This document shows, piece after piece, positions 28,003 through 57,464 of a DNA stretch of 64,000 nt. The position numbers were made by a program, and so were the translations under genes. This stretch comes from Bacteroidota bacterium. GTDB lineage: Bacteria > Bacteroidota > Bacteroidia > NS11-12g > UBA9320. The notes beneath the pieces are model-generated. The model saw nothing but the letters and a program-made list of their open reading frames with translations. It was not told the origin of the DNA and made no database searches. Location of the stretch: assembly GCA_024679565.1 (NCBI GenBank), contig JAIBDD010000002.1, positions 54,590 through 118,589 on the forward strand, read 5' to 3'. Each line of letters starts with the position of its first letter. Within the stretch, counting starts at the first letter, position 1.

Positions 28003-28136
28003 GTCCTTTTTGTTACAAAGTTCCTGTGGTTTATCAGCTACCACACTGCTCAGAATCAGAAGAATCAACTGATTATCAGCACAAACATTTACAAACTTTG
28101 TAACTAACTTATGAGGTTACCCCCAGACATAAAAAG

Positions 28137-29185: not shown

Positions 29186-32100
29186 TTAATCAATTATCAG
29201 TTTTCTGTTTAAACTACCCTGATGCGTATTCAGTTCTAATATGTATATCCCTGATGTGAGTTTGCTATTTACTTCAATGCTTGTCCCACTAAGACCATTC
29301 TTTGTCAGTACAACTTTACCAAGTTGGTCATAAATAACCAATGTGCCATTTACGCACGCTTCATCAAGCTCAATCAAAAATTTGCCATCGTTTGGATTGG
29401 GGTAAAGCGCTCCAGTAATACTTTTCACATCCAATACACTACTCAATGTGTCTTTAGACACAATAACAGTATAGTCTTCCACTTCTCCACTTTCCAAACC
29501 ACATGGGTCAACCTCGTTTGATGTATATCTGCACACAACGCGCAGTCTTAGTTCTTTGTCAAGTACTACGTCACTAGGGATGGTGAACGTGCCCAAACTT
29601 GAATGACTGCCATCAATTTGACCCATATTTAGTCGCTCGTTACTTTCAAATTCTGCGTCTAAGTCGTAGTCAATCCAAGCCTCTACTTTGTTAAGCTCAA
29701 AATGATAATTAAGTTCCATCGAAAGCGTGTAGGTTTGGTTTTGCATCAGGTGGACGATGCTGTCTGTGTAATCACCATAGTACTCTTGGTTTGTCGTATT
29801 TGACATGCTTTCTAGTCCCACATATTTAATCCAATCAGCCCCTGTACCAGATCCCCCTCTGCCTTCACAATAAACAAAAGGTCGAACCCTGTAATGATAC
29901 CTGTAAGACGTTGTGATTTCACCACTGTTAGATTCTACTATCAACTTGAAGTATATATCGTCGCCTTCTTCTTCTGAAGGAATTCCCTGCTTCGACATCC
30001 ATGTGTTGCCAGAAGTGTTTTCAAGTTCAATTTCACTGCCTAAGGTTATGGCATTCTTTGACCACAATAACTTTGCATTCTTTACACCATTCTTTGATTC
30101 GATTTCTATAGTTACAACTTGATCAAAACCCTTTCTTGGTGTTCGATCTGTAACTACTTCGGTTGTGGAGACTTGCAAGATTCTTGGATAAGATGCTTTG
30201 GCAATTGTTGTATTTTCCCAAAGTCCACGTCCCCATGACGCTGCTCTTAATGTATTGCTTCCGTGATGTATTTCTAAGTCTTTAACGGTAACATTTGGCA
30301 GCTGGTCGTTATACAACGTCCACGAATTTGCATTCATGCTTTTGTAGTAAACACCTATCTCTCCACCTACATATATGTACGAAGAGTCAGATTGATCCAT
30401 TGTTACTGTTCGCAATGGCATATCTCCAAGGTTATACGTGATGTTTTGCCAACTCTGCCCTAAATCGTGTGATATGAATACTTTTTGATTGTCTCTTTGA
30501 TGTCGATTATAGGTGACAACAAGCGTACTATCTTTTAACGGATGAAATGCAATATCAGTCACACTATAATTAGGCAGATTTGAACGAATATCCGTCCATG
30601 TTTTACCCCCGTCTTGCGTAAGTCGGATAGTAGAATTTCTAGAAATCGCAATAATATCAGAATTGTTTTGAGCGATATCCGCATCCTTAACTAACCCAAT
30701 ATTGGGAGCACTGTAAAATTCCCAAGACACTCCAAAATCATCACTAACAAAAATTGAATCTGCAAAGTGATATAGTCTAAAGTGGTTTAAAGGGTCTAAC
30801 AACAATGGTGCTTCCCAGTCGGCTTGACCCGAACCACGTCTAGGGTTACCCACAGATGTTCGCGTTTGACCTCCATTTCTCGTTATGTTTCTCGATCCAT
30901 ATTGCCAGCTGCCTATCATCCAATCACTGTTAAGCGGTTGTACAATGCCTTCCATTCCATCACCACCATTCCATTCAACCCAACCTGCTTCTTTCAAAAT
31001 GCTGGTGCCGTTGTCTTGTGATCCTGCTATGTTCGCATAGATATTGGATTGGCTTAAACCCACAGCATAAAATTCACGAATCGCTGTACCATCATTCAGT
31101 CTCGTCCAAGTTGTACCATTATCCGAACTTTTTGCTAAATATCCATCCGTACCTAAATAAAATACGCCATTTAGGCATTCTGCTGTTCGAATATCCGCAT
31201 GTACATAAGCCGCATTTCTATTACTCCATTTCGTGACTTGTTTAAAGGTTTGACCTTCATCCGTACTTGCCTCCGTATCGACATAACCGTAAATCATGTT
31301 TTTTACGTCTAAATCCGACACGGCAAAGCCTAAACAGCTTTCGTCAGGATTTGATAAAAAGGTAAAAAATGCGCCTTGGTTTTTTGAGCGCCAAACACCA
31401 TTGGTAGACGCCACATACACATTGTTTGGTGCGCTTGGCGAAACGGCAATATGCAGTTTTGCATTATTGTTATCTGCAATTAGCGCAGAATTGTTCCAGG
31501 TTTTACCTGTATCGTTTGAGTACTTAAGATAATTTCTATCAGATTGATAATAATCGTATGCGTAAATACGGGCAGGGTTAGTTGGATGAAATTCCATGTC
31601 TGTATTCCTTCCAGAGAATACAAGCGTCCAAGTTTGCAAATTGTCTTTCGACAGATACATCCCATTCGACGTGCCTATGTATATTATTCCCGTTCTCGTC
31701 GGGTGAAACGCTATTTTGTAAATTCTATGATTTCTACCTAATCCACCAAAAGATGTTGCTAAGGGATTGAATTTCGTCTCAAACCACGTTGTTCCGCCAT
31801 CACTAGATCTGAAAAGACCATGTGTATTGGCATTGCCCCCTTGACGAGCGGCAATTAAAATATCGTTATTATCAGACGGATTAACACTCAAAGATTCTAC
31901 ACCTGAAACCACTAAGGTATCCGTCGTATTTTCCCAGTTCTTTCCACCATCTGATGTTCTCCAAAAACCACCGCTCCTTGATCCAAGGAATATTTGGTCT
32001 GTATTGGATGGGTTTACCCAAAACGTTTCAACCCTACCAATACCTGGAGAATAGTGCGAGGTGATGTTATTGGCATCCCAAGGTCCTAATTCTTCCCAGC

Positions 32101-32431
32101 CGTTTTCGAGTGCTTTTCCGTGTTTGTTAACTCGGCCGTTTGATACGTTTCGATAGCTTTCAATCGCACCAAGATCATAGGCATTTAGTCTATCTCCTGA
32201 AGGAAAATATTTGCTCTCGTTTTCGTTTTTCCAACGCTGATATCCTTTCCAACCGCTACCTTTCCCTGTACCATTTTTATCGAAATAGACTTCCGCTGAA
32301 TCAACAACTTCATAGAAATTGTAGTTGATGTCATCCATCATCCATTTGTAAGACTTTTCTTGACCAAAACCAAGCGTCGCTATTAATGAAATAGATACAA
32401 CTGCTATTAATTTTTTACTTCTCTTAAACAT
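29186..32431 (-). CDS. BNR/Asp-box (sortilin/VPS10-like) beta-propeller protein with GEVED domain and type-A T9SS CTD
   Basis: Start set at MFKRSKKLIAVVSISLIATLGFGQ (32431). At least 7 Asp-box motifs (SDGGKNW, SDGGTTW, NDTGKTW, TDEGQTF, SDNGTTW, QDGGKTW, HDLGQSW). GEVED motif (LESGEVEDYTVIV). C-terminal YPNPNDGKFLIEL...GIYILELNTHQGSLNRKLIID. Confidence 0.8.
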   Translation of the reverse strand: MFKRSKKLIAVVSISLIATLGFGQEKSYKWMMDDINYNFYEVVDSAEVYFDKNGTGKGSGWKGYQRWKNENESKYFPSGDRLNAYDLGAIESYRNVSNGRVNKHGKALENGWEELGPWDANNITSHYSPGIGRVETFWVNPSNTDQIFLGSRSGGFWRTSDGGKNWENTTDTLVVSGVESLSVNPSDNNDILIAARQGGNANTHGLFRSSDGGTTWFETKFNPLATSFGGLGRNHRIYKIAFHPTRTGIIYIGTSNGMYLSKDNLQTWTLVFSGRNTDMEFHPTNPARIYAYDYYQSDRNYLKYSNDTGKTWNNSALIADNNNAKLHIAVSPSAPNNVYVASTNGVWRSKNQGAFFTFLSNPDESCLGFAVSDLDVKNMIYGYVDTEASTDEGQTFKQVTKWSNRNAAYVHADIRTAECLNGVFYLGTDGYLAKSSDNGTTWTRLNDGTAIREFYAVGLSQSNIYANIAGSQDNGTSILKEAGWVEWNGGDGMEGIVQPLNSDWMIGSWQYGSRNITRNGGQTRTSVGNPRRGSGQADWEAPLLLDPLNHFRLYHFADSIFVSDDFGVSWEFYSAPNIGLVKDADIAQNNSDIIAISRNSTIRLTQDGGKTWTDIRSNLPNYSVTDIAFHPLKDSTLVVTYNRHQRDNQKVFISHDLGQSWQNITYNLGDMPLRTVTMDQSDSSYIYVGGEIGVYYKSMNANSWTLYNDQLPNVTVKDLEIHHGSNTLRAASWGRGLWENTTIAKASYPRILQVSTTEVVTDRTPRKGFDQVVTIEIESKNGVKNAKLLWSKNAITLGSEIELENTSGNTWMSKQGIPSEEEGDDIYFKLIVESNSGEITTSYRYHYRVRPFVYCEGRGGSGTGADWIKYVGLESMSNTTNQEYYGDYTDSIVHLMQNQTYTLSMELNYHFELNKVEAWIDYDLDAEFESNERLNMGQIDGSHSSLGTFTIPSDVVLDKELRLRVVCRYTSNEVDPCGLESGEVEDYTVIVSKDTLSSVLDVKSITGALYPNPNDGKFLIELDEACVNGTLVIYDQLGKVVLTKNGLSGTSIEVNSKLTSGIYILELNTHQGSLNRKLIID

Positions 32432-32465
32432 AGTATCCAAATGTAATTCATCTATTGTAAACTGA

Positions 32466-33758
32466 TTACCCCAATCCCCGTTTGTATGTTTCCAAAGCAC
32501 GAATCCTTGCCAATTTATGATCAACCATAGGGTTCGGATACTTCTCAGTTGACACTTCCGGAATCCATTTGGCGACATATTGCCATTGTCCATCAAATTT
32601 CCTTAACTGTTCGATGGGGTTAAATATCCTAAAATAGGGCGCTGCATCACATCCCGTTCCTGCTGCCCACTGCCAGTTTCCATTGTTTGAAGCCAGCTCG
32701 AAATCAAGCAGTTTAGAGGCAAAATATGCTTCCCCCCATCGCCAATCAATCAGAAGGTGTTTACACAAAAAACTAGCGGTGACCATGCGGACACGGTTAT
32801 GCATATACCCTGTTGCATTTAATTGTCGCATTCCGGCATCAACCATTGGGTACCCCGTATTGCCCGAACACCACTTCTCAAATTCTGACCTATCATTCCG
32901 CCATTCAATGCTATCGTACTTTCTCTTGAAATTATGTTCGACAACAGATGGAAAATGATACAAAATTTGCATAAAAAACTCGCGCCATATGAGCTCAGAC
33001 ACAAAAACCGCATTGTCTTTTACTTCACTCAGTATGGTTCTAATACCAATTGTTCCAAATCGCAAGTGCGGGCTTAGGTAGCTTGTTTTATCAACAGCTG
33101 GTAAATCTCGGTTTTGTGCATACCCTGATAAGTCGTCGATATTAAAGGGTTTAACCTCAATATTTGATTTTTCAAAACCTATTTCAGCAAGAGATAACGA
33201 CGCTCCAGCCGTTTTGTACCAGTTCGGTTTGCCTGGGTTTTCCATTGGTTTAACCTCGTTTAAATGTATGTGCTGAAGCCATCTGTTTTTAAAAGGAGTG
33301 TATACCGTATAAGGAGATCCATCTGCCTTAACCACTTCATTTTTTTCGACCATTACTTGGTCTTTAAAGGTGTTAAAAGGGATTTTTTTGGATTGAAGGA
33401 GTTCGTTAATTTTTTCGTCGCGATACCTCCCATAAGGTTCGTAATCGTGATTGGAATACACCGTTGCAATTTCCCAGTCTTTCATCAACGTCTTGAAAAC
33501 ATCTAACGGGTTTCCATTGAACATGAACAACCCTGATTGATGGCGGGTTAATTTTTGATGAATTTCTTTTAAACGCTCGTGGATAAAAGAAACCCGCGGG
33601 TCGTTTGAATCAAGCTCGTTTAGGATTTCATCATCGAAGATAAATATAGGGACGACAGGGTGCCCAGACTTCAACGCCTTGGATAAGCCCACATTGTCTT
33701 CCAATCGTAAATCACGACGAAACCAAAATACGGCAACTTGGTCTTTTTGATTAGTCAT
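32466..33758 (-). CDS. deoxyribodipyrimidine photolyase / cryptochrome-family flavoprotein
   Basis: N-terminal VFWFRRDLRLEDN. FAD-binding region WREFF, TGYPMVDAGMRQL, NNGNWQWAAGTG. Start set at MTNQKD. Confidence 0.85.
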   Translation of the reverse strand: MTNQKDQVAVFWFRRDLRLEDNVGLSKALKSGHPVVPIFIFDDEILNELDSNDPRVSFIHERLKEIHQKLTRHQSGLFMFNGNPLDVFKTLMKDWEIATVYSNHDYEPYGRYRDEKINELLQSKKIPFNTFKDQVMVEKNEVVKADGSPYTVYTPFKNRWLQHIHLNEVKPMENPGKPNWYKTAGASLSLAEIGFEKSNIEVKPFNIDDLSGYAQNRDLPAVDKTSYLSPHLRFGTIGIRTILSEVKDNAVFVSELIWREFFMQILYHFPSVVEHNFKRKYDSIEWRNDRSEFEKWCSGNTGYPMVDAGMRQLNATGYMHNRVRMVTASFLCKHLLIDWRWGEAYFASKLLDFELASNNGNWQWAAGTGCDAAPYFRIFNPIEQLRKFDGQWQYVAKWIPEVSTEKYPNPMVDHKLARIRALETYKRGLG

Positions 33759-33801: not shown

Positions 33802-36456
33802 CTACATTTGGTTCGGAATCTGTTCTGTCGAGAATTCGTATAACCTATCTGCCTCTTCTTCTTTTAGTCGTTTTACCAATTCTAAAGCATCTGGAACAAC
33901 GTCACTACACAACACAATTAACGACCCATCCACCGCGTTGTCTACCGCATGTTTTATGGCCTCAGATTCGGAAGGTATTATGGTTGTTTTAATGTTGGGA
34001 TCATGCATTTTGATTCCATCATCCAACATTTTTATCAACTCCTCCTCCGTTTTACCTCTTAATCGTTTGTCTTGACGAATGATAATCTCATCAAACATAT
34101 CAGCAGCGATGCTACCCATTTCATTATTGTCTTCTACTCTTCTGTCTCCAATTCCTGCTATAATACCGACCTTAACCGTGCACTCAATGTTTTCAATAAA
34201 TTGCTGAAGTGCTCGCATCCCAGCGGGGTTGTGGGCATAATCCAACAGTATTTTGAAGTTCTTAAAGTGGAATAAATTCAATCTTCCTGGCGTTTGGGTT
34301 GGTGAAGGAATAAACGTTTCTAAAGCTACTTTAATATCCTCGTTGCTAAATCCTTGAACGTGTGCAGCTAGTACTGCTGGCAACACATTCTGAATCATAA
34401 ATTTGGCCTTTCCTCCATACGTTAATGGAATATTTACCGCTTTGGATATTCTCATTTTCCATTCGCCACGGCAAATCGTGATATAGCCATTTTCGTAGAT
34501 AGCACTTAAGCCGTCTCGCTTTTGCATGGCTTTGATATGGATGTTTTCCTCGTCCATAGAGAACAGGGCCACATTACATTCCACCTTTTTTCTCATTTTA
34601 TAAACCAGATCATCATCGGCATTCAGGATGGCATAACCATTTGGAAGTACCGTTTCTGGAATTACACCTTTTACTGCAGCGAGTTGCTCGATGGTATGAA
34701 TTCCTTTAAGGCCTAAATGGTCGGCGGCCACATTGGTGACAATTCCAACATCGCAATTCTTAAACCCTAAACCTGCACGCAGCAATCCACCTCTCGCAGA
34801 TTCTAAAACCGCAAAATTGACTGTTGGGTCTTTCAATACAAATTCTGCGCTAGAAGGCCCTGTGCAATCTCCCTTCATCAAAAGTCTATTTTGAATATAC
34901 ACACCATCACTAGTCGTATATCCAACTTTGTAGCCTTTCATTTTCGCCATATAGGCAATCAAACGCGTGGTTGTTGTTTTCCCATTCGTTCCAGAAACAG
35001 CAACAATTGGAATTCTTGCGTTAGAACCTGGAGGGAATAATTTATCTATAACGGGTGCAGCAACATTGCGAGGTAAACCTGTGGTTGGTGCCAAATGCAT
35101 TCTAAACCCAGGGCCCGCATTAACTTCTAGCACCGCTCCTCTAGTATCCGCCAATGGCGTGCTGATATCAGAAGTCATTATGTCGATTCCGCAAATATCC
35201 AGTCCTATAATTTTAGAAATTCTTTCGGCCATAAATACGTTTGCTGGATGCACCACATCGGTTACATCTTCGGCCGTCCCTCCAGTACTTAAATTGGCGG
35301 TGTCTTTTAGTATTAACATTTCACCTTCAGAAATGACTGTGTCTACCGTATATCCCTTAGATTGAATCAACGTTTGTGTCAACTCATTCACCTTTATCGC
35401 GGTTAACACTTTTTCGTGTCCGTATCCACGTCTTGGGTCTTTGTTTACCTCGTCAATTAATTGTTGAATAGTTGATTTACCATCACCAATAACATGAGCC
35501 GGTGTTCTTTTTGCCGCAGCAACCAACTTGTGATTGATAACCAACAGTCGGTAGTCGTCACCCACAATAAACTTCTCAACGATTACCGCTCGAGACACCT
35601 TTTGCGCTTCTCTGAAGGCAACCAAAGCGTCTTCATAACTGTTTATGTTCACTGTAATTCCGCGACCGTGATTCCCATCGATTGGTTTAACCACTAGCGG
35701 AAAGCCAACATATCTGCAGGTCTCTTTCAAACTGCTTTCGCGTCTGATTATTTCTCCTCTTGGTACCTCAACTTCCGCCTGTTCTAAAAGATATTTTGTA
35801 TCCTCTTTGTCGCAGGCTAACTCTACGGCAATGTTGCTCGTTTCGCTTGTTACTGTGGCTTGAATTCTTTTTTGATTAGCTCCGTAACCCAATTGGCAAA
35901 GAGAATATTTATTTAACCTTAACCACGGTATGCCGCGTTTTTCTGCCTCTTCAACGATTGACCCAGTGCTTGGCCCGAGTCGTTCGTTTTCTCTTAAAAC
36001 ACGCATTTCTTGAATGTCTTCATCCAAGTCATATGATTCTCCACTAATTAATGCTTCACAAATGCGAACAGCAGCTCTCGCTGCATAGCGTCCCACATTT
36101 TCTTCCATGTACGCAAAAACCACATTATATACACCCTCTTCTCCATAACCACGTGTTCGTCCGAAGCCAACATCCATACCCGCTAAGGTTTGAATTTCTA
36201 GAGCAATGTGTTCAATAATATGACCCATCCAAGTGCCTTCTTCCACACGTTGAAAAAATCCACCTGGTGTACCCACTGAACATCTGTGGGCAAACATCGT
36301 AGGAAACATGTACTTTAACCTGTCTGCAAAACCATCAATTTTATCCGACGGTTTTTCTTCCATATCTTGAAGGTCAAGCACCATTACGATCAATCTGTGT
36401 CTTCTTACAGACCAATAATTTGGCCCTCGCATTGCTTGTATTTCTCTAATCTCCAT
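33802..36456 (-). CDS. cphA: cyanophycin synthetase
   Basis: 884 aa. N-terminal MRGPNYWSVRRHRLIVMVLDLQD...IDGF matches the CphA N-domain. Central ATP-grasp segment. C-terminal Mur-ligase-type P-loop VSGTNGKTTTTRLIAYM. Confidence 0.9.
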   Translation of the reverse strand: MEIREIQAMRGPNYWSVRRHRLIVMVLDLQDMEEKPSDKIDGFADRLKYMFPTMFAHRCSVGTPGGFFQRVEEGTWMGHIIEHIALEIQTLAGMDVGFGRTRGYGEEGVYNVVFAYMEENVGRYAARAAVRICEALISGESYDLDEDIQEMRVLRENERLGPSTGSIVEEAEKRGIPWLRLNKYSLCQLGYGANQKRIQATVTSETSNIAVELACDKEDTKYLLEQAEVEVPRGEIIRRESSLKETCRYVGFPLVVKPIDGNHGRGITVNINSYEDALVAFREAQKVSRAVIVEKFIVGDDYRLLVINHKLVAAAKRTPAHVIGDGKSTIQQLIDEVNKDPRRGYGHEKVLTAIKVNELTQTLIQSKGYTVDTVISEGEMLILKDTANLSTGGTAEDVTDVVHPANVFMAERISKIIGLDICGIDIMTSDISTPLADTRGAVLEVNAGPGFRMHLAPTTGLPRNVAAPVIDKLFPPGSNARIPIVAVSGTNGKTTTTRLIAYMAKMKGYKVGYTTSDGVYIQNRLLMKGDCTGPSSAEFVLKDPTVNFAVLESARGGLLRAGLGFKNCDVGIVTNVAADHLGLKGIHTIEQLAAVKGVIPETVLPNGYAILNADDDLVYKMRKKVECNVALFSMDEENIHIKAMQKRDGLSAIYENGYITICRGEWKMRISKAVNIPLTYGGKAKFMIQNVLPAVLAAHVQGFSNEDIKVALETFIPSPTQTPGRLNLFHFKNFKILLDYAHNPAGMRALQQFIENIECTVKVGIIAGIGDRRVEDNNEMGSIAADMFDEIIIRQDKRLRGKTEEELIKMLDDGIKMHDPNIKTTIIPSESEAIKHAVDNAVDGSLIVLCSDVVPDALELVKRLKEEEADRLYEFSTEQIPNQM

Positions 36457-43492: not shown

Positions 43493-43918
43493 ATGCATAA
43501 AATGAAATCGAACAAAGAATATACTGGTCCTATTATCCTTTTTGACGGTGTTTGCAATTTATGCAACTCTTCGGTCGACAAGGTTATACGATGGGATAAG
43601 AAAAAGAAATTTCGATTTGCTTCCTTACAATCAGCGTTTGCTATAAACCTCCTGAATAACTCTTCCGTTAATCCTAAAGATTTAAAGAGCATTGTATACT
43701 ACCATGAAGGAAAAGTCAAACAAAAGTCGAACGCCGTTTTGGCGATCGTTTTTCAACTTGGCTTTCCCTATTCGTTACTCTATGTCTTTAAACTTATTCC
43801 TCGCTTTTTGCGCAATTATGTATACGATATAGTGGCTAAAAATAGGTACCAGTGGTTTGGCGAAAAAGAGACTTGTCGGATTCCAACGGAAGAAGAGAAG
43901 TCCCTATTTATGGGTTAG
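43493..43918 (+). CDS. DCC-family (DUF393) thiol-disulfide oxidoreductase
   Basis: ILFDGVCNLCNSSVDKVIRWDKKKKFRFASLQS contains the hallmark DCC motif. Confidence 0.75.
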   Translation: MHKMKSNKEYTGPIILFDGVCNLCNSSVDKVIRWDKKKKFRFASLQSAFAINLLNNSSVNPKDLKSIVYYHEGKVKQKSNAVLAIVFQLGFPYSLLYVFKLIPRFLRNYVYDIVAKNRYQWFGEKETCRIPTEEEKSLFMG

Positions 43919-46070
43919 TTTGGTTTAGACTTGCCCCTGCTGATCTATCTACTTTTATGGATGGGTTTCCTGAGTAACTAAAATTCGATGCTGCGTTTAA
44001 ATCCCCTGTTAATTCTGAGGTTACTTCAGCTGATGCTTTAGACGCTCCACTCATATCAACATTTGCATTTTCCGTTGTTAGATTTTTTCCATTAAAGTTT
44101 GATGCCCCATTTAACTCGAGCAACAAGAGGTCGGTTTTACCGGCAAACGTTGACATAGACCCACCTGAACCATCGATTGAAATTTTTTCTGAAATAATGT
44201 TGTTCACTTCTACTTCGGACGCCCCTGTCAATCGAAGATCAAAATATGACTTCTCATTGTCAGAAGCGTCCAAAGTAACTTTACAAGATCCTGCAACCTC
44301 TAACGCTTTTAAGTTTGAAAGCTGAATAGTGATGACTTCGTCTTCACCAACAAAGCTCTTTTTTTGTGTTAACTCAATTTTGTTGTCAGATATATCGACA
44401 TCCACCCATTTACGTCCATCATCACGTGCTGGAATATCAACACCAGATTCATTGCCTTCAATTACACGAACAGTTAGTGCACCATTAACTTCAAGCTCGT
44501 TGTAATCTCCATCCATACTGTTATATTTCTGTTTGGATATTTTCTCAGAACAATCTTCACATCTAAAGCCCGCCTCTGACATATAAAAAACATGACCGGC
44601 CATATTCGCATCATCGATATCTTGAAGGTTGTCTACATGGTGGATTATCTGTTTGGTAGATTCATGAAATATGACTGTCTGCCCAATCGGGACCTTAACC
44701 GTTAAAAATAATGATGCGGACGTAATGTGCCTCTTATCATTCAATAACACCTTCTCACTAAGCAATAAAGTGTTGTTTGTCAATCTATAGGCGGGGGCAA
44801 TTGCTTCGGTAGATTCTTTAGCAACATCTTCATTCCTTCCTCTAGCAGACTTTTGAACTTTTAGCTCAACGTTATTTCCAGACGATTGGATTACATCAAG
44901 TTTAATGTTTCTCCTCGTTTTCGTATACTCTTCTGCTAACAAATCATCTACCCGCAAAATAATTGTATCGCTATTCACATCAAGTGTTTCGACAACTGTA
45001 GCAGTTCCTTCCGACTGGTATTCTCGTGCATTATAAAAGAATCCAATTATGGCTAAAATAATGGCAAGAAACCAACCTGAAATCATAGATTGCTTTACCG
45101 GTTTTGATGGTTTAGGAACGGCCGAAAGTACTTCTGGTAATATGTGAATGGCTAGATACGCCAATGGTATAGCAAAAATCAAGTAGAACGCAATTTTAAA
45201 GAACCACGATCCGGCACCCAGAACCATAACATTAAATACATTTCCGTCAATCCGAATATTTGAATCCAGGTTAAAGAAATGGCCATTAAACAAAATACCC
45301 ATCAAAGACGAAATGAGTAAAACAATAATTCCTACGAAAGCCATCACTGCAAAGAGTTTGAAAAATGCACCGAATACCCGCTTAAGAAACCCAAAAAAGG
45401 ACTCAAAAAAATGCGATACGGACTTTCTGTTTTCTGGAGAAGCGATACGGTCGTAAGCTGCTTTTGCCTCACTATGTATGGTATTCTTTATATTCTCTAT
45501 ATTGGGTGACTCACCCATCATTTCTAGTTTTTCAGCAGTAGTTTTTGCCCCAGGTAAAATGGCCCACAAAATGATATATATCCAAAACCCGAACCCGAAC
45601 ACCAATAAAGAAACTAGCCATAGAATACGCAGTACCGTTGGGTCAAAGTCAAGATACTTGGCAAGCCCCGCACAGACACCACCGATTTGCTGGTTGTCTA
45701 TGTCTCGAAACAAGCGTCTTTTCGCTCTAGATGAAGATTTCGTTTTTGCGTCTTTTTGTTTTGGCTCTTCGGTCGCATTTCCCGAAGTAGTTTCTTGTGG
45801 TTCTGCTTCGGCTTCAAAGTCTGATGGGTAACCCATTGTTTGTGCCACATCCTCCACATCCTGCATGCTGATTGAAATTTTTGTTTCATTCAATTTAGCC
45901 TGAAGCATTTCTCCAACACGCAACTCAATGTCGGCAATGATCTCATCACCGTTTTCCGTATCTCTGAAATGATTCCCAATGTTTTTTAAATAATCCCTTA
46001 GGGAGTCAAAAGCATCTTCTTCGATTGTAATGGCAATTCCGCCAATGTTGATGGTAGCTATCTTATTCAT
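43908..46070 (-). CDS. large PspC-domain membrane protein with C-terminal DUF2807/GIN-like beta domain
   Basis: PspC block GGVCAGLAKYLDFDPTVLRILWLVSLLVFGFGFWIYIILWAI. Several further TM helices. C-terminal Gly/Ala/Ser/Asn-rich repeat region. Confidence 0.75.
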   Translation of the reverse strand: MNKIATINIGGIAITIEEDAFDSLRDYLKNIGNHFRDTENGDEIIADIELRVGEMLQAKLNETKISISMQDVEDVAQTMGYPSDFEAEAEPQETTSGNATEEPKQKDAKTKSSSRAKRRLFRDIDNQQIGGVCAGLAKYLDFDPTVLRILWLVSLLVFGFGFWIYIILWAILPGAKTTAEKLEMMGESPNIENIKNTIHSEAKAAYDRIASPENRKSVSHFFESFFGFLKRVFGAFFKLFAVMAFVGIIVLLISSLMGILFNGHFFNLDSNIRIDGNVFNVMVLGAGSWFFKIAFYLIFAIPLAYLAIHILPEVLSAVPKPSKPVKQSMISGWFLAIILAIIGFFYNAREYQSEGTATVVETLDVNSDTIILRVDDLLAEEYTKTRRNIKLDVIQSSGNNVELKVQKSARGRNEDVAKESTEAIAPAYRLTNNTLLLSEKVLLNDKRHITSASLFLTVKVPIGQTVIFHESTKQIIHHVDNLQDIDDANMAGHVFYMSEAGFRCEDCSEKISKQKYNSMDGDYNELEVNGALTVRVIEGNESGVDIPARDDGRKWVDVDISDNKIELTQKKSFVGEDEVITIQLSNLKALEVAGSCKVTLDASDNEKSYFDLRLTGASEVEVNNIISEKISIDGSGGSMSTFAGKTDLLLLELNGASNFNGKNLTTENANVDMSGASKASAEVTSELTGDLNAASNFSYSGNPSIKVDRSAGASLNQTNP

Positions 46071-47181: not shown

Positions 47182-47266
47182 TCTTGACTATATAGTTACA
47201 ACTATGTGTGCGTAAAATACGTACTTTGTTAGCATTAAGGTGTTATACAAATTTACTCACGATCAA

Positions 47267-49318
47267 ATGCCGACAAAAATCATTCTAGCCCTTTTATCAG
47301 TTTTGCTGATATCGTCTTGCAAACGAAAAGAGAAAACCTGGGACACAAATATTAAAGCTCCGTTATTCAAAGCAGAACTTGGTTTCAATAATCTTTTAGA
47401 TGACAGCCTTCTGGTTGTTCAATCAGATAAAAGTTATAGCCTAAGTTATGACTATGGATATGCCATCGACAGTGTTGGAAGTTATCTTGATGTTCCAGAC
47501 ACTCTTGACAAGGTGAAAATCACGCTTGACAAGCTTGTGTTGGCTGACCGTACGTATGTAGACACCTTTACATTGCGCGAAATGGATCCTCAAACAGGTT
47601 TGTTTGATGGGTTAACTCTACCCTTTGATGCTCAAAAAATTGAAAACCCACAAGGAGAACAAGAAATAGATGTTAGTGAGGAGTTCTTCCAAACAGCCAA
47701 ATTCAACAAAGGCTTTTTGGATATTAAGATTCACAACGACCTACCCGTTTATGTGGATGTAATCATATTTAAACTCGTCAATAAACAAAGTGGTGAAATT
47801 GTAGCACAAGACACCTTTACAGATATTGCACCAGATGATTCTTCGTCCAAATCTATTGATTTGGCCGGTAAGGTTGTGGACGGCGTGATGGTTGGCAGCA
47901 TTGTTAGAGTCGAAACACGAGCAAGCAACGGTCCTGTGCTTATTGATGCCGATAAAGGCGTTCGTCTATCGTTGTCCGTTCATTCTCTTGAACCAGAGTA
48001 TGCAACGGCCATTTTTCCTGAACAAACTTTAGTAGAAGACAAACAGGAAGTAGTGTATAAATTTGGTGGTCCGCTTATTACAGAAATTAAGGCACGAAGT
48101 GGTACGGTCAAAATGCGAATTTCCAGTACCATCGCTGAAGAAATCATCATCGACTATTCCTTCCCGAATAGTGGGGAAAATGGAGATTTTAATAAGCCAT
48201 TTAATAAGCAATATCGTGTACCCGCTGCTAAACCAGGCACAACACAGGTTATTGAGGGCACCTTCCCTTTGGACGGATATGTGATGCAATACAAAGGACA
48301 AGATCCAACACAACCACCCTTTTTCAACACCGTATATAGTGAACTTACGGCTCGAACTGTGTATTCAGGAGAAGTAAGAGACTTGTCTTTAGATGATTTT
48401 GTTGAGATAGAATTTGGGTTGGTAGATATAAAACCAGAATATGCCTTTGGCGACTTTGGAAAGAAAGAATTTGAATTGAACGAAACTGTTGATATTCCTA
48501 TTTTCAAAAACGTATCTGGCGCAATCGATTTAGAATCGGTTAAAATGAATCTCTTCCTTGATAATGCTTTTGGCATCCAAGCGTTAACGACAGTGAATTC
48601 AATCACCGCCAGTAACTCAATGAACAATAACTCGGTTTCATTAACGCACCCAGAGGCCATTGGTCAAGACATTTTATTAACCAGAGCAACCAACCCCCCT
48701 TTGTTAGCCCATACGCAGTTTTATGAGTTTGATCAAAACACATCAAATATTAAAGCGTTTTTCGAGGTTCTCCCGGATCAAATAACCACCGATTTAAAAA
48801 TAATTAGTCGCCCTAACGGAAGTAATGACTATACGGATTTTGTTAAAGACGAAAGCTACCTTCGGGCTAGGTTAAATGTTGTAATGCCGGTTCAATTCTC
48901 TGCCGACAACCTCACGTTAGTAGAAAAACAACCCTTTGATTTCAATTCTCTTGAAAATGCCGAAAAGATAAAAAGTGGGTCATTCAAGCTAAAAGTACTT
49001 AACGACTACCCATTTGACGCCGAGATAAAAGTTGAGTTTTTAAATGAAGTTGACGAAGTTCTTCTACCTCTATTTGCCTCAGGCGAAAAAATTGAAGCAG
49101 CACAAATAAATGGTGCAACAGGTAAAACAGATGAGGCGGCGCTTAGTTACCTAACTGCTACCATATCAGAACAACAGATGGACATCATTCGGGAGTCAAC
49201 AAAGGTGCGCATAACCAGTGTGTTTGATTCACCCAATGGTTCGCCCAACAAAATATTTAGTGATTACTTACTTAAAACTCAATTGTCGGCAGACTTTGTT
49301 TATGAACAGACTTTATAA
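47267..49318 (+). CDS. hypothetical lipoprotein (~680 aa)
   Basis: Start set at MPTKIILALLSVLLISSC (lipobox). Tracked start is 47240. No recognised domain. Confidence 0.55.
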   Translation: MPTKIILALLSVLLISSCKRKEKTWDTNIKAPLFKAELGFNNLLDDSLLVVQSDKSYSLSYDYGYAIDSVGSYLDVPDTLDKVKITLDKLVLADRTYVDTFTLREMDPQTGLFDGLTLPFDAQKIENPQGEQEIDVSEEFFQTAKFNKGFLDIKIHNDLPVYVDVIIFKLVNKQSGEIVAQDTFTDIAPDDSSSKSIDLAGKVVDGVMVGSIVRVETRASNGPVLIDADKGVRLSLSVHSLEPEYATAIFPEQTLVEDKQEVVYKFGGPLITEIKARSGTVKMRISSTIAEEIIIDYSFPNSGENGDFNKPFNKQYRVPAAKPGTTQVIEGTFPLDGYVMQYKGQDPTQPPFFNTVYSELTARTVYSGEVRDLSLDDFVEIEFGLVDIKPEYAFGDFGKKEFELNETVDIPIFKNVSGAIDLESVKMNLFLDNAFGIQALTTVNSITASNSMNNNSVSLTHPEAIGQDILLTRATNPPLLAHTQFYEFDQNTSNIKAFFEVLPDQITTDLKIISRPNGSNDYTDFVKDESYLRARLNVVMPVQFSADNLTLVEKQPFDFNSLENAEKIKSGSFKLKVLNDYPFDAEIKVEFLNEVDEVLLPLFASGEKIEAAQINGATGKTDEAALSYLTATISEQQMDIIRESTKVRITSVFDSPNGSPNKIFSDYLLKTQLSADFVYEQTL

Positions 49319-50495
49319 TCTCGTCGTTCTTATTCTTTTATACGGCACCTGCTTCGGACAGGAAGGTGACTCGGTAAATCAAAATACGACCTTCCAAAAG
49401 GAAATATCCATTGACAAAAAATTAGTTGTTGTTGGAAATGGCGGTGTCATTACAAGCTTTCTCAATAATAGTTTAGTGAAGGAAAATCATTGGACTGATG
49501 AAATCATTCAAAATCAAATCAACGCCCTGGGTAGCAAAAATCGTTTTGGTGCTTATGTGGCTTTTGATGCAACATACCACATAGGGAATGGCACTTTTTT
49601 CGGAGCTGGTTATCAAAACATAATTGGTGCGACTACACAAAAATCTATTTTTCAACTGATTCTAGAGGGAAACAAAAACCAACCCAACATTACCTTAGAT
49701 CAGCATAACGGGTTCGAACAAATCGGGTTTGCATTTGTAACTGTCGGCAAAGAGTTCGTTGACTCTTCCGCTCAACGTAAAACTAGTTTTAGCGTAAACC
49801 TTTACGGAAGACAAAATTATTCTAAGTATAGTGCCGATGGAGGCACCTTTGATTTAGACAGCGCTGGTGAATCAATCCAAGTAAACGATGCCGCCCTCTC
49901 AATTTCCCAAGACATTTCAGATCCATTCAACACCTTTGGTATAGGCGCTAGTTTTAAAATGAATCAAATTTTCAACGAAAATCTTATCTCGTTTGAAATC
50001 AACAATCTTGGCGTTTTCTTTGGTTCCAATATCCGCTCGGCACAAATGATAGAGGCATGCACCTTCGACGGTTTCAACCTTTCTTCTCAAATAAATAACG
50101 CCGGAGGCGTTACACTTCAAGATTCCGTAAATAACAATTACTTTGAAACAGATACTTCAAGTGCTGTTCAGTTATTGCCGTTTTCAACACGTTTTGCGAT
50201 AAGTAAACCACTTGGAAATAGGAATTCTTTTAGAGCAGAAATACATTACCTATACTTCACAGGTTATTACCCCTTGTTAAAAGCTGAATACCATCAGCGT
50301 TTTAAGGGCACAAATGCCTCTTGGAATGTAGGTGCACGTGTTGGTGGTTTTGGAAATTATGCCCTGTCGCTTGGAACCTATATTCCCCTCGGCAAACACA
50401 CGATAACAGCAAAAATTGCTGGTTTAGAATCTATGGTTTCAGAAAATCTACCTGTGAATTGGTGTGGTCAAATCGGTTTAAAGTTTATGCTTTAA
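49302..50495 (+). CDS. hypothetical secreted protein, likely outer-membrane beta-barrel
   Basis: Start at MNRLYNLVVLILLYGTCFGQ (49302), overlapping the upstream gene by 17 bp. Gly/aromatic-rich alternating segments. Ends GQIGLKFML. Confidence 0.5.
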   Translation: MNRLYNLVVLILLYGTCFGQEGDSVNQNTTFQKEISIDKKLVVVGNGGVITSFLNNSLVKENHWTDEIIQNQINALGSKNRFGAYVAFDATYHIGNGTFFGAGYQNIIGATTQKSIFQLILEGNKNQPNITLDQHNGFEQIGFAFVTVGKEFVDSSAQRKTSFSVNLYGRQNYSKYSADGGTFDLDSAGESIQVNDAALSISQDISDPFNTFGIGASFKMNQIFNENLISFEINNLGVFFGSNIRSAQMIEACTFDGFNLSSQINNAGGVTLQDSVNNNYFETDTSSAVQLLPFSTRFAISKPLGNRNSFRAEIHYLYFTGYYPLLKAEYHQRFKGTNASWNVGARVGGFGNYALSLGTYIPLGKHTITAKIAGLESMVSENLPVNWCGQIGLKFML

Positions 50496-52800: not shown

Positions 52801-54102
52801 TTATGCCGTTGCCATCTTCTGACGGTCTGAATAAAGTGGGAACTGTCGCATCATTGCATTTACTTCCGTAGTAACCTCATTTAGAACACTTTCATCGTCA
52901 TGATTATTTAACGCACGGTCGATTAAGCTTACGATTGTCGCCATTTGCTCTTCCTTTAATCCACGTGTTGTAATGGCTGGGGTGCCAATGCGCATTCCTG
53001 ACGTTACAAACGGAGATCGAGTTTCTTGTGGAACGGTATTTTTATTGATGGTTATATGACATCGAACCAAGGTGTCTTCTGCCATGCGACCCGTTAAGTC
53101 TTCAAACTTTGTTCTCAAATCGATTAACATCAAATGATTGTCTGTTCCACCTGAAATGACTTTATAGCCACGTTTTTCAAATTGGCGTGCCATTTCTTTG
53201 GCGTTCAAAACGAGCTGTTTACAATAAGTCTTGTACTCTTCTGTATCTGCTTCTTTAAAAGCTACCGCTTTACCTGCAATAACGTGTTCTAAAGGTCCAC
53301 CTTGACTTCCAGGAAATACGGCAGAATCCAAAAGAGCCGTCATCTTACGTAAATTCCCTTTACGATCTCGTGTGCCTCGTTTGTTTTCGAAATCTTCTCC
53401 CACCATAATCATTCCTCCTCTTGGCCCTCTTAACGTTTTGTGGGTTGTAGTAGTAAGTATATGGCAATGTTTGACAGGGTCGTTTAGCAAACCTGTGGCG
53501 ATTAGCCCAGATGGGTGTGAAATATCTGCAAGCAAGATAGCATCTACTTTATCAGCAATTTCTCTAAACCTAGCATAGTCCCAATCTCTCGAATAACTTG
53601 ATGCTCCACAGATTATCAATTTTGGCTTTTCGCGTAGTGCTATTTCCTCAACGCTATCCATATCTACTAATCCAGTTTCATGGTCTATACCATAGTGGAA
53701 CGCAGTATATGTTTTTCCTGAAAAATTTACAGGTGAACCATGTGTTAAGTGGCCCCCATTCGATAAATCAAACCCAAGCAACTTTTCTCCTGGTTCTAAA
53801 CAAGCTAGCATAACTGCTGCATTGGCTTGTGAGCCAGAGTGTGGCTGCACATTCGCCCATGATACGCCGAACAACTTTTTTGCTCTATCAATGGCAATCT
53901 GTTCAACTTGGTCAACTACCTCGCAACCACCATAATAGCGTTTGCCAGGTAATCCTTCAGCATACTTGTTTGTCAATACACTTCCAACCGCCTGAAGCAC
54001 TTGTTCAGAAACAAAGTTCTCACTTGCGATTAACTCAATACCTTCTTGTTGACGGTGTAATTCTTGGTTGATTAAATCAAAAATCTCTGTATCCATTTCC
54101 AT
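52801..54102 (-). CDS. glyA: serine hydroxymethyltransferase
   Basis: Start set at MEMDTEIFD (54102). PLP-Lys region [16 protein letters not shown] and GlyA-typical length (434 aa). Confidence 0.95.
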
Positions 54103-54215
54103 TTTATTGTACACACAAAGATAACTAAACCGCTGTGGTGTAAGCCAATTCTGTCTACAATTTATTAATTTGCGATTACTAACTACAGAAAGTAACATTT
54201 GAAATCATTGATATA

Positions 54216-57200
54216 ATGCGTAATTATCGTTCAGCTCATACTCTGCAAAATAGAAACTTGCTGCCCAACATTTTCCGATGGGCGTCTTCACTAATTTTCT
54301 TACTGTCCACATTTTCAGCGACTTACGGACAAGGCGTTGGTGTAAATGAGGATGGTACTGATCCGGACCCATCTGCCATTCTTGACGTAAAGTCAAATTC
54401 AAGAGGTATGTTGGTTCCACGACTCACAAAAGCCGTAAAGCTAGGAATACCCGGCCCTGCCAACGGTTTGTTGGTGTACCAAACCGACGACACGATTGGT
54501 TTTTGGTATTATGACATAAATAGGTGGAAACCCGTTTTTCAAAATATCACGGCAGGTAATGGCTTAACGGGCAACAAAATTGAAGGGTATGGCACCATTA
54601 ATTTAGAACCTACAGGAATTACGACCGGTCAATATGGAAATGCCGACTCTATACCACAGTTTACGGTTAATGCATTCGGACAGTTGGTGTTTGCGCGCAA
54701 TGTTGCTTTGCGAGAACAAGATGGCATTATTGGAAATGAAATAACAGACACCGCAAATAGTTTAGGACTGCTTAACAGAGCAGGTTCTGGAACCTCTGCT
54801 GATCCATACACCGTTGGTGTAAACAGTGGAAGTTCACAAAATGATATTTGGATGTGGGACGGCAACAATTGGGTGTTAACCCAGTTTCCATTTGAACAAG
54901 ACAGTATAATCGGAAATGAAATTAGTGATACCGCCCAATCTAGGGGCATATTGATTCGGAATGGTCGTGGAAACTCCGCAAATCCATACACACTAGGGGT
55001 AACAGCTGGTTCGGCTATCGGGGATGTTTTTATGTGGGACGGTAATAAGTGGGTTTCAAATCCCATTGTTTTCCCAACAGAACAAGACGGCATTATTGGA
55101 AACGAACTTACGGATACCACTAACGCTAGGGGCGTCATAAACCGTCAAGGAAGTGGCACCACAGCAAATCCGTATAAAATATCAGTAAACGCAGGAAACA
55201 ATGTCGGTGACGTTTGGATGTGGGACGGCAATAAATGGACGTCATCATCTGTCACTATTCCAAGCGAACAAGACAGTGTTATTGGAAACGAGGTAACGGA
55301 TACAATTAATGCACGTGGCGTGTTAAACCTCTACGGTTCAGGCACACAAACAAATCCATTAAAAATGGGAATAGAACCAGGCAACTCGACTGGTGATGTG
55401 TGGATGTGGAATGGCTCCTCTTGGGTGCCCTCTCAGATTACTCACCCACCAGTTATTATTCCAAAAGAAAAAGACAGTGTCATTGGTAACGAAATTGCAG
55501 ATACATTTAACACGTATGGTTTGATTGTCAGACAAGGCAGCGGAACAGATGTTGACCCTTATACCATAGGAGCAAAACCTGGAACCAGCGCAGGACAATC
55601 TTTAGTGTGGGATGGAACAAAGTGGGTGCTTACAACCATCGTTATTCCATTGGAAAAAGACAGTGTCATTGGTAATGAAATTGCAGATACACTGGGGTCT
55701 AATGGGATTTTAACAAGGGGCGGAACTGGGGTCGACGCAGACCCATTTACAGTTGGCATAAACAGTGGTTCAGCCTCCGGTGATGTTTGGATGTGGAACG
55801 GTACTTCTTGGGTGCCTACACAAATCACGCACCCAAATGAAGTGGATGGAATAATTGGTAATGAGTTGACTGATACAATAAACGCAAGAGGTGTTTTGCA
55901 GCGTTCAGGATCTGGAACGGTAGCGAACCCATACAAAATTGGGGTAACGACAGGTAAAAGCAACGGAGACGTATGGATGTGGAATGGCTCGAATTGGGTA
56001 CCGTCACAAATCGTTCACCCGAACGAGGTTGATGGTATTGTGGGTAATGAAGTTACAGACACCATTGCCAATGGCTTCTTAAACTTAACTGGTGCAGGTA
56101 CCGCAGCTAGCCCTAAAAAGGTGGGACTAAAGTCTGGTAATACAGTAGGAGATGTTATTGTTTGGGATGGCACAACATGGGTGCCCGGTTATTTAGACCG
56201 AAACACGTTGGATATGGCCTATGACGAAGGCGGTGCTGGAAATGGTAGGACAATTACCGCCGATAATGGCGCAGTAGAAATAAAAGGAGCTGATGGGTTT
56301 TTGGTTGACGGAAAAGTTGGGACAGGCGCTACAGCGGGTTCCATTGGTGCAAGTACACGTTTACACTTTAACCCAAGAACATCTGCATTTCGCGCAGGAA
56401 CTGCTGTAGCAACAGAGTGGGACGCAGCCAATTTGGGGCTTTACTCTACAGCTTTTGGATATGGCTCGCTTGCTTCAGATGACTACACATTTGCTGCCGG
56501 TAAAGGCGCAAGTGCCGTTGGTGATCACAGTATTGCCATCGGTGATAGTACAGTAACTCTACTTGAGTATTCCATTGCCATGGGAAATAGGTCGGTGACA
56601 GGTGGTAAAAACACAATGGCCATTGGAACAGGAAATACCGCATATGGTCAATACTCCTTTATTACAGGAATTAACTCTAGATCATTAGGTACAAATTCTG
56701 GAATATTTGGTGAAGAGTGTTTTGTATTAAGTGGATACAAACATGGCTATGCCTTTGGTCATAGAGATACCGTAAAGGGCGATTATGCTGTGGCCATCGG
56801 TCATAATGCATATTCTGAAGGAACTGGAGCGGTTGCCATTGGATTTAACGTGCGCACAAATAACCCGTATTCTGTCGCTATTGGAAACAATGCCGATGCT
56901 ATTGCTGACAGGTCTGTGGCTATAGGAAGCTTTGTGTCGACCAACCTAAAAAATGGCTCATTCATATTTGGTGACGGAAGTACAACAACAACCATGTTTA
57001 GTCCTGCTCAACACACCATGACTATGCGTTTTAACAACGGGTATAGACTTTACTCCAAATCAGATTTAACTACTGGTGTTTACATGCTGAATGGCGGTAC
57101 ATCATGGACTTCGGTTTCGGATAGAAACATGAAAGAAAATTTTGAAGATATAAATGGAGAAGACCTTCTCGATAAAATAGAAGATCTACCCATTACTAAA

Positions 57201-57464
57201 TGGAATTACAAAGGAAACCCCGATAGCGTTAAGTTCATTGGGCCAATGGCGCAAGACTTCCATAAATCTTTTGGTTTGGGTGGTTCTGACAGCCTTGGTA
57301 TTAGCACACTAGCTTTTGATGGTGTAAACATCGCAGCCGTGCAAGCTCTTATTGTGCGTACCAATAAGATAGAAAATTTAGAATCAACAATATCTAAACA
57401 AGGTGCTGAAATTAAAGCCCTAAAAGAAGAGATTGTAGCTATTAAGAATTTACTTAAAAAATAG
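54216..57464 (+). CDS. phage-tail-fibre-like secreted protein with 8 tandem ~62-aa repeats and a C-terminal peptidase S74 intramolecular chaperone domain
   Basis: Signal peptide (..STFSATYGQ). Conserved N-terminal block DPSAILDVKSNSRGMLVPRLT. Repeats EQDGIIGNEITDT...GSGT..NPY..GV..G...GDVWMWDGN.W. Hep_Hag/beta-helix-like AIG-rich region. C-terminus VSDRNMKENFEDI...KFIGPMAQDF... plus coiled coil matches the endosialidase/tail-fibre IMC domain. Confidence 0.75.
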   Translation: MRNYRSAHTLQNRNLLPNIFRWASSLIFLLSTFSATYGQGVGVNEDGTDPDPSAILDVKSNSRGMLVPRLTKAVKLGIPGPANGLLVYQTDDTIGFWYYDINRWKPVFQNITAGNGLTGNKIEGYGTINLEPTGITTGQYGNADSIPQFTVNAFGQLVFARNVALREQDGIIGNEITDTANSLGLLNRAGSGTSADPYTVGVNSGSSQNDIWMWDGNNWVLTQFPFEQDSIIGNEISDTAQSRGILIRNGRGNSANPYTLGVTAGSAIGDVFMWDGNKWVSNPIVFPTEQDGIIGNELTDTTNARGVINRQGSGTTANPYKISVNAGNNVGDVWMWDGNKWTSSSVTIPSEQDSVIGNEVTDTINARGVLNLYGSGTQTNPLKMGIEPGNSTGDVWMWNGSSWVPSQITHPPVIIPKEKDSVIGNEIADTFNTYGLIVRQGSGTDVDPYTIGAKPGTSAGQSLVWDGTKWVLTTIVIPLEKDSVIGNEIADTLGSNGILTRGGTGVDADPFTVGINSGSASGDVWMWNGTSWVPTQITHPNEVDGIIGNELTDTINARGVLQRSGSGTVANPYKIGVTTGKSNGDVWMWNGSNWVPSQIVHPNEVDGIVGNEVTDTIANGFLNLTGAGTAASPKKVGLKSGNTVGDVIVWDGTTWVPGYLDRNTLDMAYDEGGAGNGRTITADNGAVEIKGADGFLVDGKVGTGATAGSIGASTRLHFNPRTSAFRAGTAVATEWDAANLGLYSTAFGYGSLASDDYTFAAGKGASAVGDHSIAIGDSTVTLLEYSIAMGNRSVTGGKNTMAIGTGNTAYGQYSFITGINSRSLGTNSGIFGEECFVLSGYKHGYAFGHRDTVKGDYAVAIGHNAYSEGTGAVAIGFNVRTNNPYSVAIGNNADAIADRSVAIGSFVSTNLKNGSFIFGDGSTTTTMFSPAQHTMTMRFNNGYRLYSKSDLTTGVYMLNGGTSWTSVSDRNMKENFEDINGEDLLDKIEDLPITKWNYKGNPDSVKFIGPMAQDFHKSFGLGGSDSLGISTLAFDGVNIAAVQALIVRTNKIENLESTISKQGAEIKALKEEIVAIKNLLKK
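54714..56210 (+). repeat. in-frame tandem DNA repeat, 8 units of ~186 bp (one of ~204 bp), within the tail-fibre-like gene
   Basis: Recurring blocks such as gatgtttggatgtgggacggcaa and gaacaagacagtgtcattggaaacga at about 186-bp spacing. Confidence 0.75.

Follow-up and report, generated by a model that had tools for sequence, protein, structure and literature searches.

A chromosomal S74-terminated tail-fibre-like protein and its conserved type IX secretion cargo neighbour in a Bacteroidota bacterium

Here we describe a gene for a phage-tail-fibre-like protein, and the gene that follows it, in a 64,000-nucleotide stretch of DNA from a Bacteroidota bacterium (contig JAIBDD010000002.1; the whole stretch is hereafter referred to as the window, and its own numbering is used throughout). 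The fibre gene is an open reading frame at 54216-57464 on the plus strand, the coordinates given in an earlier sequence-only reading of the window, and encodes 1082 amino acids (aa). An identical protein is held at NCBI as MCO4819500.1, where it bears the PGAP name "tail fiber domain-containing protein". The fibre ends in an intramolecular chaperone domain of the Peptidase_S74 family (hereafter S74), and its gene is followed, after a gap of 19 bp, by a gene for a cargo protein of the type IX secretion system (T9SS), hereafter referred to as the partner. This pairing is conserved well beyond the closest relatives of the locus. The two genes comprise the following features.

54216-54329, plus strand: predicted Sec-type signal peptide, aa 1-38, with cleavage predicted between TYG and Q39; read from the sequence
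54330-54551, plus strand: PTL_trimer domain (Pfam PF26696), aa 39-112; from precomputed Pfam tables and our own profile
54552-54713, plus strand: connector, aa 113-166 (TAGxGLTGG...TGxxxGxYG..IPQFTVNxxGQL), conserved in all orthologues
54714-56204, plus strand: eight tandem repeats of ~62 aa, aa 167-663 (E.D..IGNE..DT....G.L.R.GSGT...PY..G...G...GDVW.W.G..W)
56205-56387, plus strand: linker or neck, aa 664-724 (NTLDMAYDEGGAG...); from orthologue conservation, with low AlphaFold2 confidence
56388-57035, plus strand: YadA-head-like beta-roll region, aa ~725-940; from Pfam YadA_head and PDB sequence matches
57036-57116, plus strand: pre-cleavage segment, aa 941-967, up to the predicted scissile bond V967-S968; from conservation, with the site placed by analogy
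57117-57464, plus strand: Peptidase_S74 intramolecular chaperone and auto-processing domain (PF13884), aa 968-1082, with a C-terminal helix at aa 1036-1081, and the stop codon
57484-59787, plus strand: partner gene, 767 aa, with a signal peptide, an unannotated N-domain (~aa 19-350), PKD domains and CHU_C; from Pfam

The N-terminus of the fibre has a basic N-region, a hydrophobic core at aa 19-35 (mean Kyte-Doolittle hydropathy 1.5-1.8) and then TYG-Q, in which Gln39 is invariant among the 28 orthologues to which all statements on invariance below refer. A Sec-type leader with cleavage before Gln39 is thus predicted from the sequence, in agreement with the signal peptide called in the sequence-only reading. 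Exported Bacteroidota proteins reportedly have, as a typical feature, a Gln immediately behind the signal-peptidase I site (the 'Q-rule' ascribed to Bochtler et al. in 2018). The leader has no lipobox, and the single Cys of the fibre is located elsewhere. Two further segments that join the larger modules are also conserved: the linker (N663, L665, D666, Y669 and G673-R678, among other invariant positions) and the pre-cleavage segment (G942, Y943, G954 and W964). The full-length AlphaFold2 monomer has a mean predicted local distance difference test score (pLDDT) of 52 and is usable for the head and the C-terminal helix only.

The C-terminal region matched Pfam Peptidase_S74 at aa 968-1019 with 42.6 bits (E 7e-11), where the gathering cut-off is 22. 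The SDxxxK motif, as defined in PMC10769870 and PMC8326128, is intact (S968-D969-R-N-M-K973), and Ser968, Asp969 and Lys973 are all invariant. Behind the motif, the AlphaFold2 monomer contains a single long helix spanning aa 1036-1081 (pLDDT about 72-77). The top Foldseek matches were MyRF ICA (7dc3) and endoNF (3gw6), both weak (E 0.06-1), and a single-sequence search of the PDB with the S74 domain returned no match. Profile and motif alike make the fibre a true S74 family member, as the sequence-only reading had proposed.

The same Pfam family contains the phage domains of the K1F endosialidase (3GW6) and the T5 L-shaped tail fibre pb1 (4UW8) as well as the eukaryotic MyRF ICA (7DC3), with all of which the fibre shares the Ser-x4-Lys dyad and the extreme C-terminal position and, by prediction, a coiled coil at the C-terminus and a trimeric beta structure ahead of the domain. 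Identity to the phage examples is only 29-36% and is limited to aa ~961-1062. The fold upstream also differs, being a YadA-like roll here and a triple beta-helix or a sialidase in phage S74 proteins; and, unlike those proteins, this fibre is predicted to be Sec-exported and is encoded in a housekeeping context. MyRF is cleaved at P586-S587, where S587/K592 are equivalent to endoNF S911/K916 (PMC8326128), and the crystal structure of the Bdellovibrio protein Bd3182 stops at A781, ahead of the catalytic S782 (PMC10769870). By analogy with these two sites, V967-S968 is the expected scissile bond. Cleavage is expected at the conserved Ser-Asp, with the bond lying before Ser968 and not after it, one residue upstream of the position originally suggested.

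Between the linker and the pre-cleavage segment lies the only long stretch of the AlphaFold2 monomer that is confidently modelled (pLDDT 70-87). Pfam YadA_head (PF05658) matched five stretches in this region (76 bits against a cut-off of 25, E 2e-21), and its PDB sequence matches were all heads of trimeric autotransporters (BpaC 7o23, YadA 1p9h and EibD 2xqh, with CbpF also found). What had been described as a beta-helix-like region is thus indeed a beta region of trimeric type, more specifically a YadA-head-like left-handed beta-roll. By analogy with the heads of YadA, BpaC, EibD and EmaA, with which it has YadA_head repeats in common, it presumably folds into a trimeric left-handed beta-roll that acts in adhesion. 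This likeness to BpaC, YadA, EibD and EmaA is what would favour reading the whole protein as a YadA-like trimeric autotransporter adhesin (type Vc secretion), a reading to which we assign practically no weight. Pfam and NCBIfam scans found no YadA-type membrane anchor at the C-terminus, which consists instead of S74 and a predicted coiled coil, and the NCBIfam models for EmaA, YadA and BimA, which showed partial similarity in their heads, scored far under their full-length cut-offs (45 bits against 3000, 42 against 750). The missing C-terminal beta-barrel anchor refutes type Vc secretion, and trimerization of the fibre is presumably driven by S74 instead.

The shaft is composed of exactly eight repeats, as had been counted from the sequence, and a motif scan, an alignment and our own profile all agree on this number. 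The period is 62 aa, with a single 5-residue insertion, and each repeat scores 90-112 bits against the profile. Any two repeats are 38-69% identical as protein and ~53% identical as DNA. Tandem Repeats Finder reported nothing on the repeat DNA because this DNA identity is so low, and on the same grounds the repeats are old, selectively maintained copies. No significant match to the repeat was found in Pfam, PHROG or PDB, in line with the view that it falls outside known families. The proposed novelty holds to this extent, that no curated family covers the repeat, and not in the sense of rarity: of 1.84 billion cluster representatives, the profile matched 1730 at E ≤1e-3 and 284 at E ≤1e-10. 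The repeat is therefore unmodelled by curated libraries, yet not rare. Named carriers come from Flavobacterium, Arenibacter, Cellulophaga, Dysgonomonas and Chryseobacterium, where they are annotated as 'beta strand repeat-containing proteins'. Taken separately, each half of the repeat (positions 1-40 and ~22-58) has matches in many other proteins, and the 62-aa unit may thus be made up of two smaller motifs. In structure comparisons the repeat model came near significance only once, with the unnamed viral protein BFVD I4AZR3, which is 31% identical over 80 columns (E 8e-3) and could be a phage copy of the repeat.

The N-terminal module begins directly after the predicted leader. PF26696 (PTL_trimer) is listed in the precomputed Pfam tables for four proteins that are 100% identical to the fibre (P0001-P0004) and for all full-length orthologues. 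N-terminally truncated relatives lack it, which places it at aa ~39-112, and our own domain profile (A3) matches aa 39-112 of the fibre, in agreement with this placement, and also finds the domain in relatives. The conserved N-terminal block, earlier suspected to define a widespread Bacteroidota family, is thus PTL_trimer, as the tables of the relatives confirm. Members of PTL_trimer match phage PHROGs, including a 'tail fiber protein' family. The PTL_trimer profile gave no match in the PDB, and a literature search on PF26696 or PTL_trimer yielded nothing relevant. The connector that follows has no Pfam match; 31 of the 41 partner-linked fibres have it, as do the fibres of two further loci with downstream partner relatives (L004 and L006, see below).

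Other PTL_trimer proteins (P0111, P0080, P0089 and P0075) have varied C-termini, for example C1q/TNF-like (PF00386) or FISUMP (PF09603) domains, big Ig-like arrays and LVIVD repeats, which points to the swapping of tips on a common base. Tandem arrays of three to four PTL_trimer fibre paralogues also occur (L005:7001-15911, L056:4412-11607 and L072:4209-11279, each in the numbering of its own locus), with no adjoining partner gene; the connector was not found in the fibres of these partner-less arrays.

The surroundings of the fibre gene are those of an ordinary chromosome. The genes of the window include SHMT, SulP, thiamin pyrophosphokinase, a PspC fusion, an E1 dehydrogenase, photolyase, CPSase, cyanophycin synthetase and TonB receptors, and no phage genes were found anywhere in its 64 kb. 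Orthologues with as little as ~50% identity keep this place beside SHMT; all of them come from uncultured Bacteroidia or Bacteroidota metagenome-assembled genomes. No phage or contractile-tail structural genes were found in three orthologous loci (L001-L003) or in the window. The view that this is a chromosomal, non-phage gene is borne out by both the gene content and the kept synteny. Relatives of the C-terminal half (the YadA-like head and S74) are present in at least 548 stretches in data with one genome per species, and span Bacteroidota, Ignavibacteria, Gemmatimonadota, Acidobacteriota, Verrucomicrobiota, Planctomycetota and others. By contrast, cultured phages and IMG/VR contigs share essentially the S74 domain only, rarely the head, at 29-45% identity.

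These data bear on whether the protein is an orphan or domesticated tail fibre of a prophage, a tailocin or an extracellular contractile injection system (eCIS) encoded elsewhere in the genome. Both S74 and the PTL_trimer module also occur in phage proteins, and the PGAP name suggests the same origin. Phage and eCIS particles assemble in the cytoplasm, however, and this fibre has a predicted Sec signal peptide; neither phage nor eCIS genes are present in the window; the housekeeping synteny is stable down to 50% identity; and the 62-aa repeat, whose motif was one of the two patterns used in the scan, was not found in IMG/VR viral contigs. We consider an orphan tail fibre very improbable, and the Sec signal, the lack of phage or eCIS genes in the window and the stable synteny led us to reject it.

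Two T9SS type A cargo genes lie in the same window, at 26518-28068 (minus strand) and 29186-32596 (minus strand). One encodes two PKD domains and Por_Secre_tail; the other encodes Sortilin/BNR, GEVED and Por_Secre_tail domains. These genes show that the organism uses a type IX secretion system. The fibre itself has no Por_Secre_tail or CHU_C match in Pfam or NCBIfam, and PF18962 and PF13585 are found on none of the 120 listed fibre relatives. As it lacks a sorting domain, the fibre is not T9SS cargo in its own right.

The partner, by contrast, carries a C-terminal T9SS type B sorting domain: CHU_C matched aa 678-753 with 43.7 bits against a cut-off of 27, and NCBIfam TIGR04131 matched with 32.8 bits, slightly under its cut-off of 35. 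Upstream of it, PKD_4 matched four stretches. The partner shares this combination of PKD and C-terminal sorting domain with type B (CHU_C) and type A (Por_Secre_tail) cargo, for example the SprB-type surface proteins of Flavobacteriia, and differs from such cargo in its ~330-aa N-domain, for which no match was found in Pfam, NCBIfam or PDB. When the N-domain profile was compared with the PDB, only T9SS sorting domains (from other alignment rows) and a chance-level match to T4 gp5 were returned. Display by T9SS-linked machinery had been suggested for the fibre; the link to T9SS stands, not through a sorting domain on the fibre but through a conserved adjacent cargo gene.

A partner gene is present beside all orthologues, and the pairing extends beyond them. 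In an unrelated context (L006), a divergent PTL_trimer/S74 fibre of 1796 aa is followed by a partner that is 33% identical over its full length (E 6e-139). At two more loci (L004 and L060), other fibres of PTL_trimer/S74 type are followed by a protein with the N-terminal module of the partner (hhalign probability 96.5% and 89%) that ends in a type A sorting domain above cut-off. Relatives of the partner N-domain are fused directly to sorting domains of type A or type B, and a PTL_trimer gene was adjacent in three of the four sampled contexts of partner relatives.

A metagenome scan for the partner N-domain yielded 66 loci, 41 of which have at least 3 kb of upstream DNA. A PTL_trimer open reading frame lies immediately upstream on the same strand in 36 of these 41 (88%). 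When the partners were clustered at 70% identity, 18 of 22 clusters kept the pairing, as did 9 of 11 at 50%; it is thus not a by-product of a few closely related genomes. BLAST clustering placed the fibre family in 52 of the 66 loci. Of all 41 linked fibres, 32 end in a coiled coil and have an SDxxxK motif about 115-150 aa before the C-terminus, and nine carry other tips. A third conserved gene (PorP/SprF-like or other) was also sought, and no third family occurred in more than 18 of the 66 loci.

The position of the partner directly downstream raises the question of whether it is a folding or assembly factor of the fibre, and not its anchor or carrier. Phage tail-fibre assembly proteins are encoded just downstream of fibre genes, an order that the conserved pair mirrors. 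The fibre already has an intramolecular chaperone of its own, however, and the partner is a large multi-domain T9SS cargo with PKD domains, which are typical of surface proteins and not of chaperones; we therefore regard an assembly role as quite improbable.

The closest characterized system is that of the mosaic adhesive trimeric (MAT) fibres of Bdellovibrio bacteriovorus (Caulton et al. 2024, PMC10769870). A MAT fibre has a signal peptide and an N-domain of ~130 aa that is invariant and thought to bind an element of the cell surface, followed by a trimeric fibre and an S74 or other tip; MAT fibres are located at the surface, and S74 self-cleavage was demonstrated for Bd3182 (PMC10769870). 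Proteins of the MAT S74 subgroup such as Bd3182 resemble the present fibre in being chromosomal, about 1000 aa long and equipped with a signal peptide, a long fibre and a C-terminal S74 with SDxxxK. In both, a beta-rich N-terminal module comes right after the signal peptide (~130 aa in MAT, 128 aa here, aa 39-166). In both families the S74 end is swapped for other tips in relatives (here C1q/TNF-like PF00386 and FISUMP), and both are multigene; the tandem arrays of PTL_trimer paralogues recall the multigene MAT families.

The differences are equally clear. The two systems belong to different phyla; the shaft of 62-aa repeats and the YadA-like head are found here, as against a beta-helix tip before S74 in Bd3182; and a conserved adjacent T9SS cargo gene is present here, unlike in Bdellovibrio, which to our knowledge has no T9SS. 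By analogy the protein is MAT-like in layout. This likeness covers layout only, not homology of the N-domains, and does not imply a predatory lifestyle for the source organism.

Combining these data, we propose the following mechanism. The fibre would be exported through Sec, and the leader would be removed ahead of Gln39. The S74 coiled coil at the C-terminus would nucleate a homotrimer, as in endoNF, T5 pb1, MyRF and Bd3182, and S74 would template the folding of the YadA-like roll and then of the shaft of eight 62-aa beta units. S74 would next remove itself through Ser968/Lys973 catalysis at V967-S968, which would expose the distal tip. The mature fibre would be displayed at the surface with its N-terminal PTL_trimer and connector module (about 128 aa) proximal to the cell, where it may serve as an adhesin or a receptor-binding fibre. 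The co-transcribed partner would supply the T9SS signal, acting either as a surface dock or as an export carrier of the fibre. T9SS sorting signals are C-terminal, and a separate sorting-domain partner is proposed because the C-terminus of the fibre is occupied by the chaperone and the fibre has no sorting domain.

We consider this chain as a whole, that is, a Sec-exported, homotrimeric, phage-tail-fibre-like surface fibre of a T9SS-bearing Bacteroidota bacterium with the partner as dock or carrier, to be somewhat probable. The data establish the domain architecture, the intact catalytic motif, the non-phage chromosomal setting, the T9SS cargo genes of the organism and the conserved gene pair, whereas trimerization, self-cleavage, surface location, binding between fibre and partner, and the role as adhesin or receptor-binding fibre are inferred. 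The identity of the protein as a fibre with an S74 end is, taken alone, much more secure than the whole chain, and docking of the fibre to its partner, or export with it, has a roughly even chance of being correct.

Several observations weigh against the chain. That the genes are neighbours demonstrates a functional link but neither binding nor co-export, and we know of no precedent for piggy-back export through T9SS. No PTL gene lies upstream in five of the 41 loci, one partner relative (L089) has no adjoining PTL_trimer gene, the tandem-array fibre genes have no adjoining partner, and the gene order is reversed in L086 and L087. PTL_trimer is not simply an N-terminal anchor, since its profile also matches an internal repeated module, in five to seven copies, in other large proteins. 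The AlphaFold2 monomers are poor (mean pLDDT 52 and 62).

The two loci with reversed order have a distinctive arrangement (L086:1-9894 and L087:1-9882): the partner-family gene is flanked on one side by a gene for a giant SprB-repeat T9SS protein (>2500 aa in L086 and 4083 aa in L087) and, downstream, by one for a protein of 749 aa that has two PTL_trimer domains but lacks S74.

Some of these points would also fit a fibre that is surface-located or secreted, trimeric, and exported and anchored independently of its neighbour by some other route, as may also hold for MAT fibres. In that case the neighbouring gene would encode a second, co-regulated adhesin, or an accessory protein acting on the same target. 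Adjacency alone does not separate docking from such a shared function, and both the partner-less arrays and the five partner loci with no fibre gene agree with independent export. It is harder to reconcile with a pair found at 36 of the 41 loci and retained across partner clusters that share less than 50% identity, with an order that is fixed and gaps that are short in most cases, and with partners in which the sorting domain varies between type A and type B as the N-domain stays constant. We therefore think independent export possible though rather unlikely, and prefer the partner as dock or carrier.

As a class, tail-fibre proteins such as this one are already annotated; what is distinct here is the 62-aa repeat and, above all, the pairing with T9SS cargo. 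A literature search found no description of S74 fibres in T9SS organisms, of the partner family, or of a constant link between such cargo and a fibre devoid of a sorting domain. Cellular, non-phage fibres that end in S74 are very common, and the experimental work found in the search concerned Bdellovibrio only. The partner N-domain represents a new class of T9SS cargo, and the 62-aa shaft repeat has been missed by curated libraries.

The conserved pair provides a concrete, testable hypothesis for the display of S74 fibres in Bacteroidota. A broader proposal, which we put forward tentatively and believe on balance to be doubtful, is that PTL_trimer/S74 fibres and their N-domain/sorting-domain partners constitute a widespread two-component surface-fibre system of Bacteroidota, in which the fibre is carried through T9SS or docked at it. 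If this were true, it would be the first adaptor-mediated ('piggy-back') handling of cargo by T9SS. A partner that acts as carrier or dock would widen the range of what T9SS is known to handle, and would help to annotate thousands of 'tail fiber domain-containing' and 'beta strand repeat-containing' proteins.

Upstream of the fibre gene, the SHMT open reading frame at 52801-54198 (minus strand) is listed at 465 aa, and its orthologues are called at 424 aa. The real start is probably the Met of 'MEMDTEIF', which would leave ~140 bp of divergent intergenic DNA ahead of the fibre gene. A scan for promoters and terminators, by a method that does not cover Bacteroidota promoters, scored no better than shuffled sequence.

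Further upstream, two adjacent genes at 47240-49318 (plus strand, 692 aa) and 49218-50495 (plus strand, 425 aa) have no Pfam or NCBIfam match; they had been considered as a possible third component of the fibre system. This gene pair is syntenic in L001-L003, where the second gene has a weak DUF5723 match. At 43908-46070 (minus strand) lies a 720-aa fusion of PspC, a PspC transmembrane region, a toast-rack domain and a DUF2807 'GIN' adhesin-head-like domain. A cyanophycin synthetase is encoded at 33802-36456 (minus strand), and a 1037-aa TMEM260-like protein O-mannosyltransferase at 15071-18184 (plus strand).

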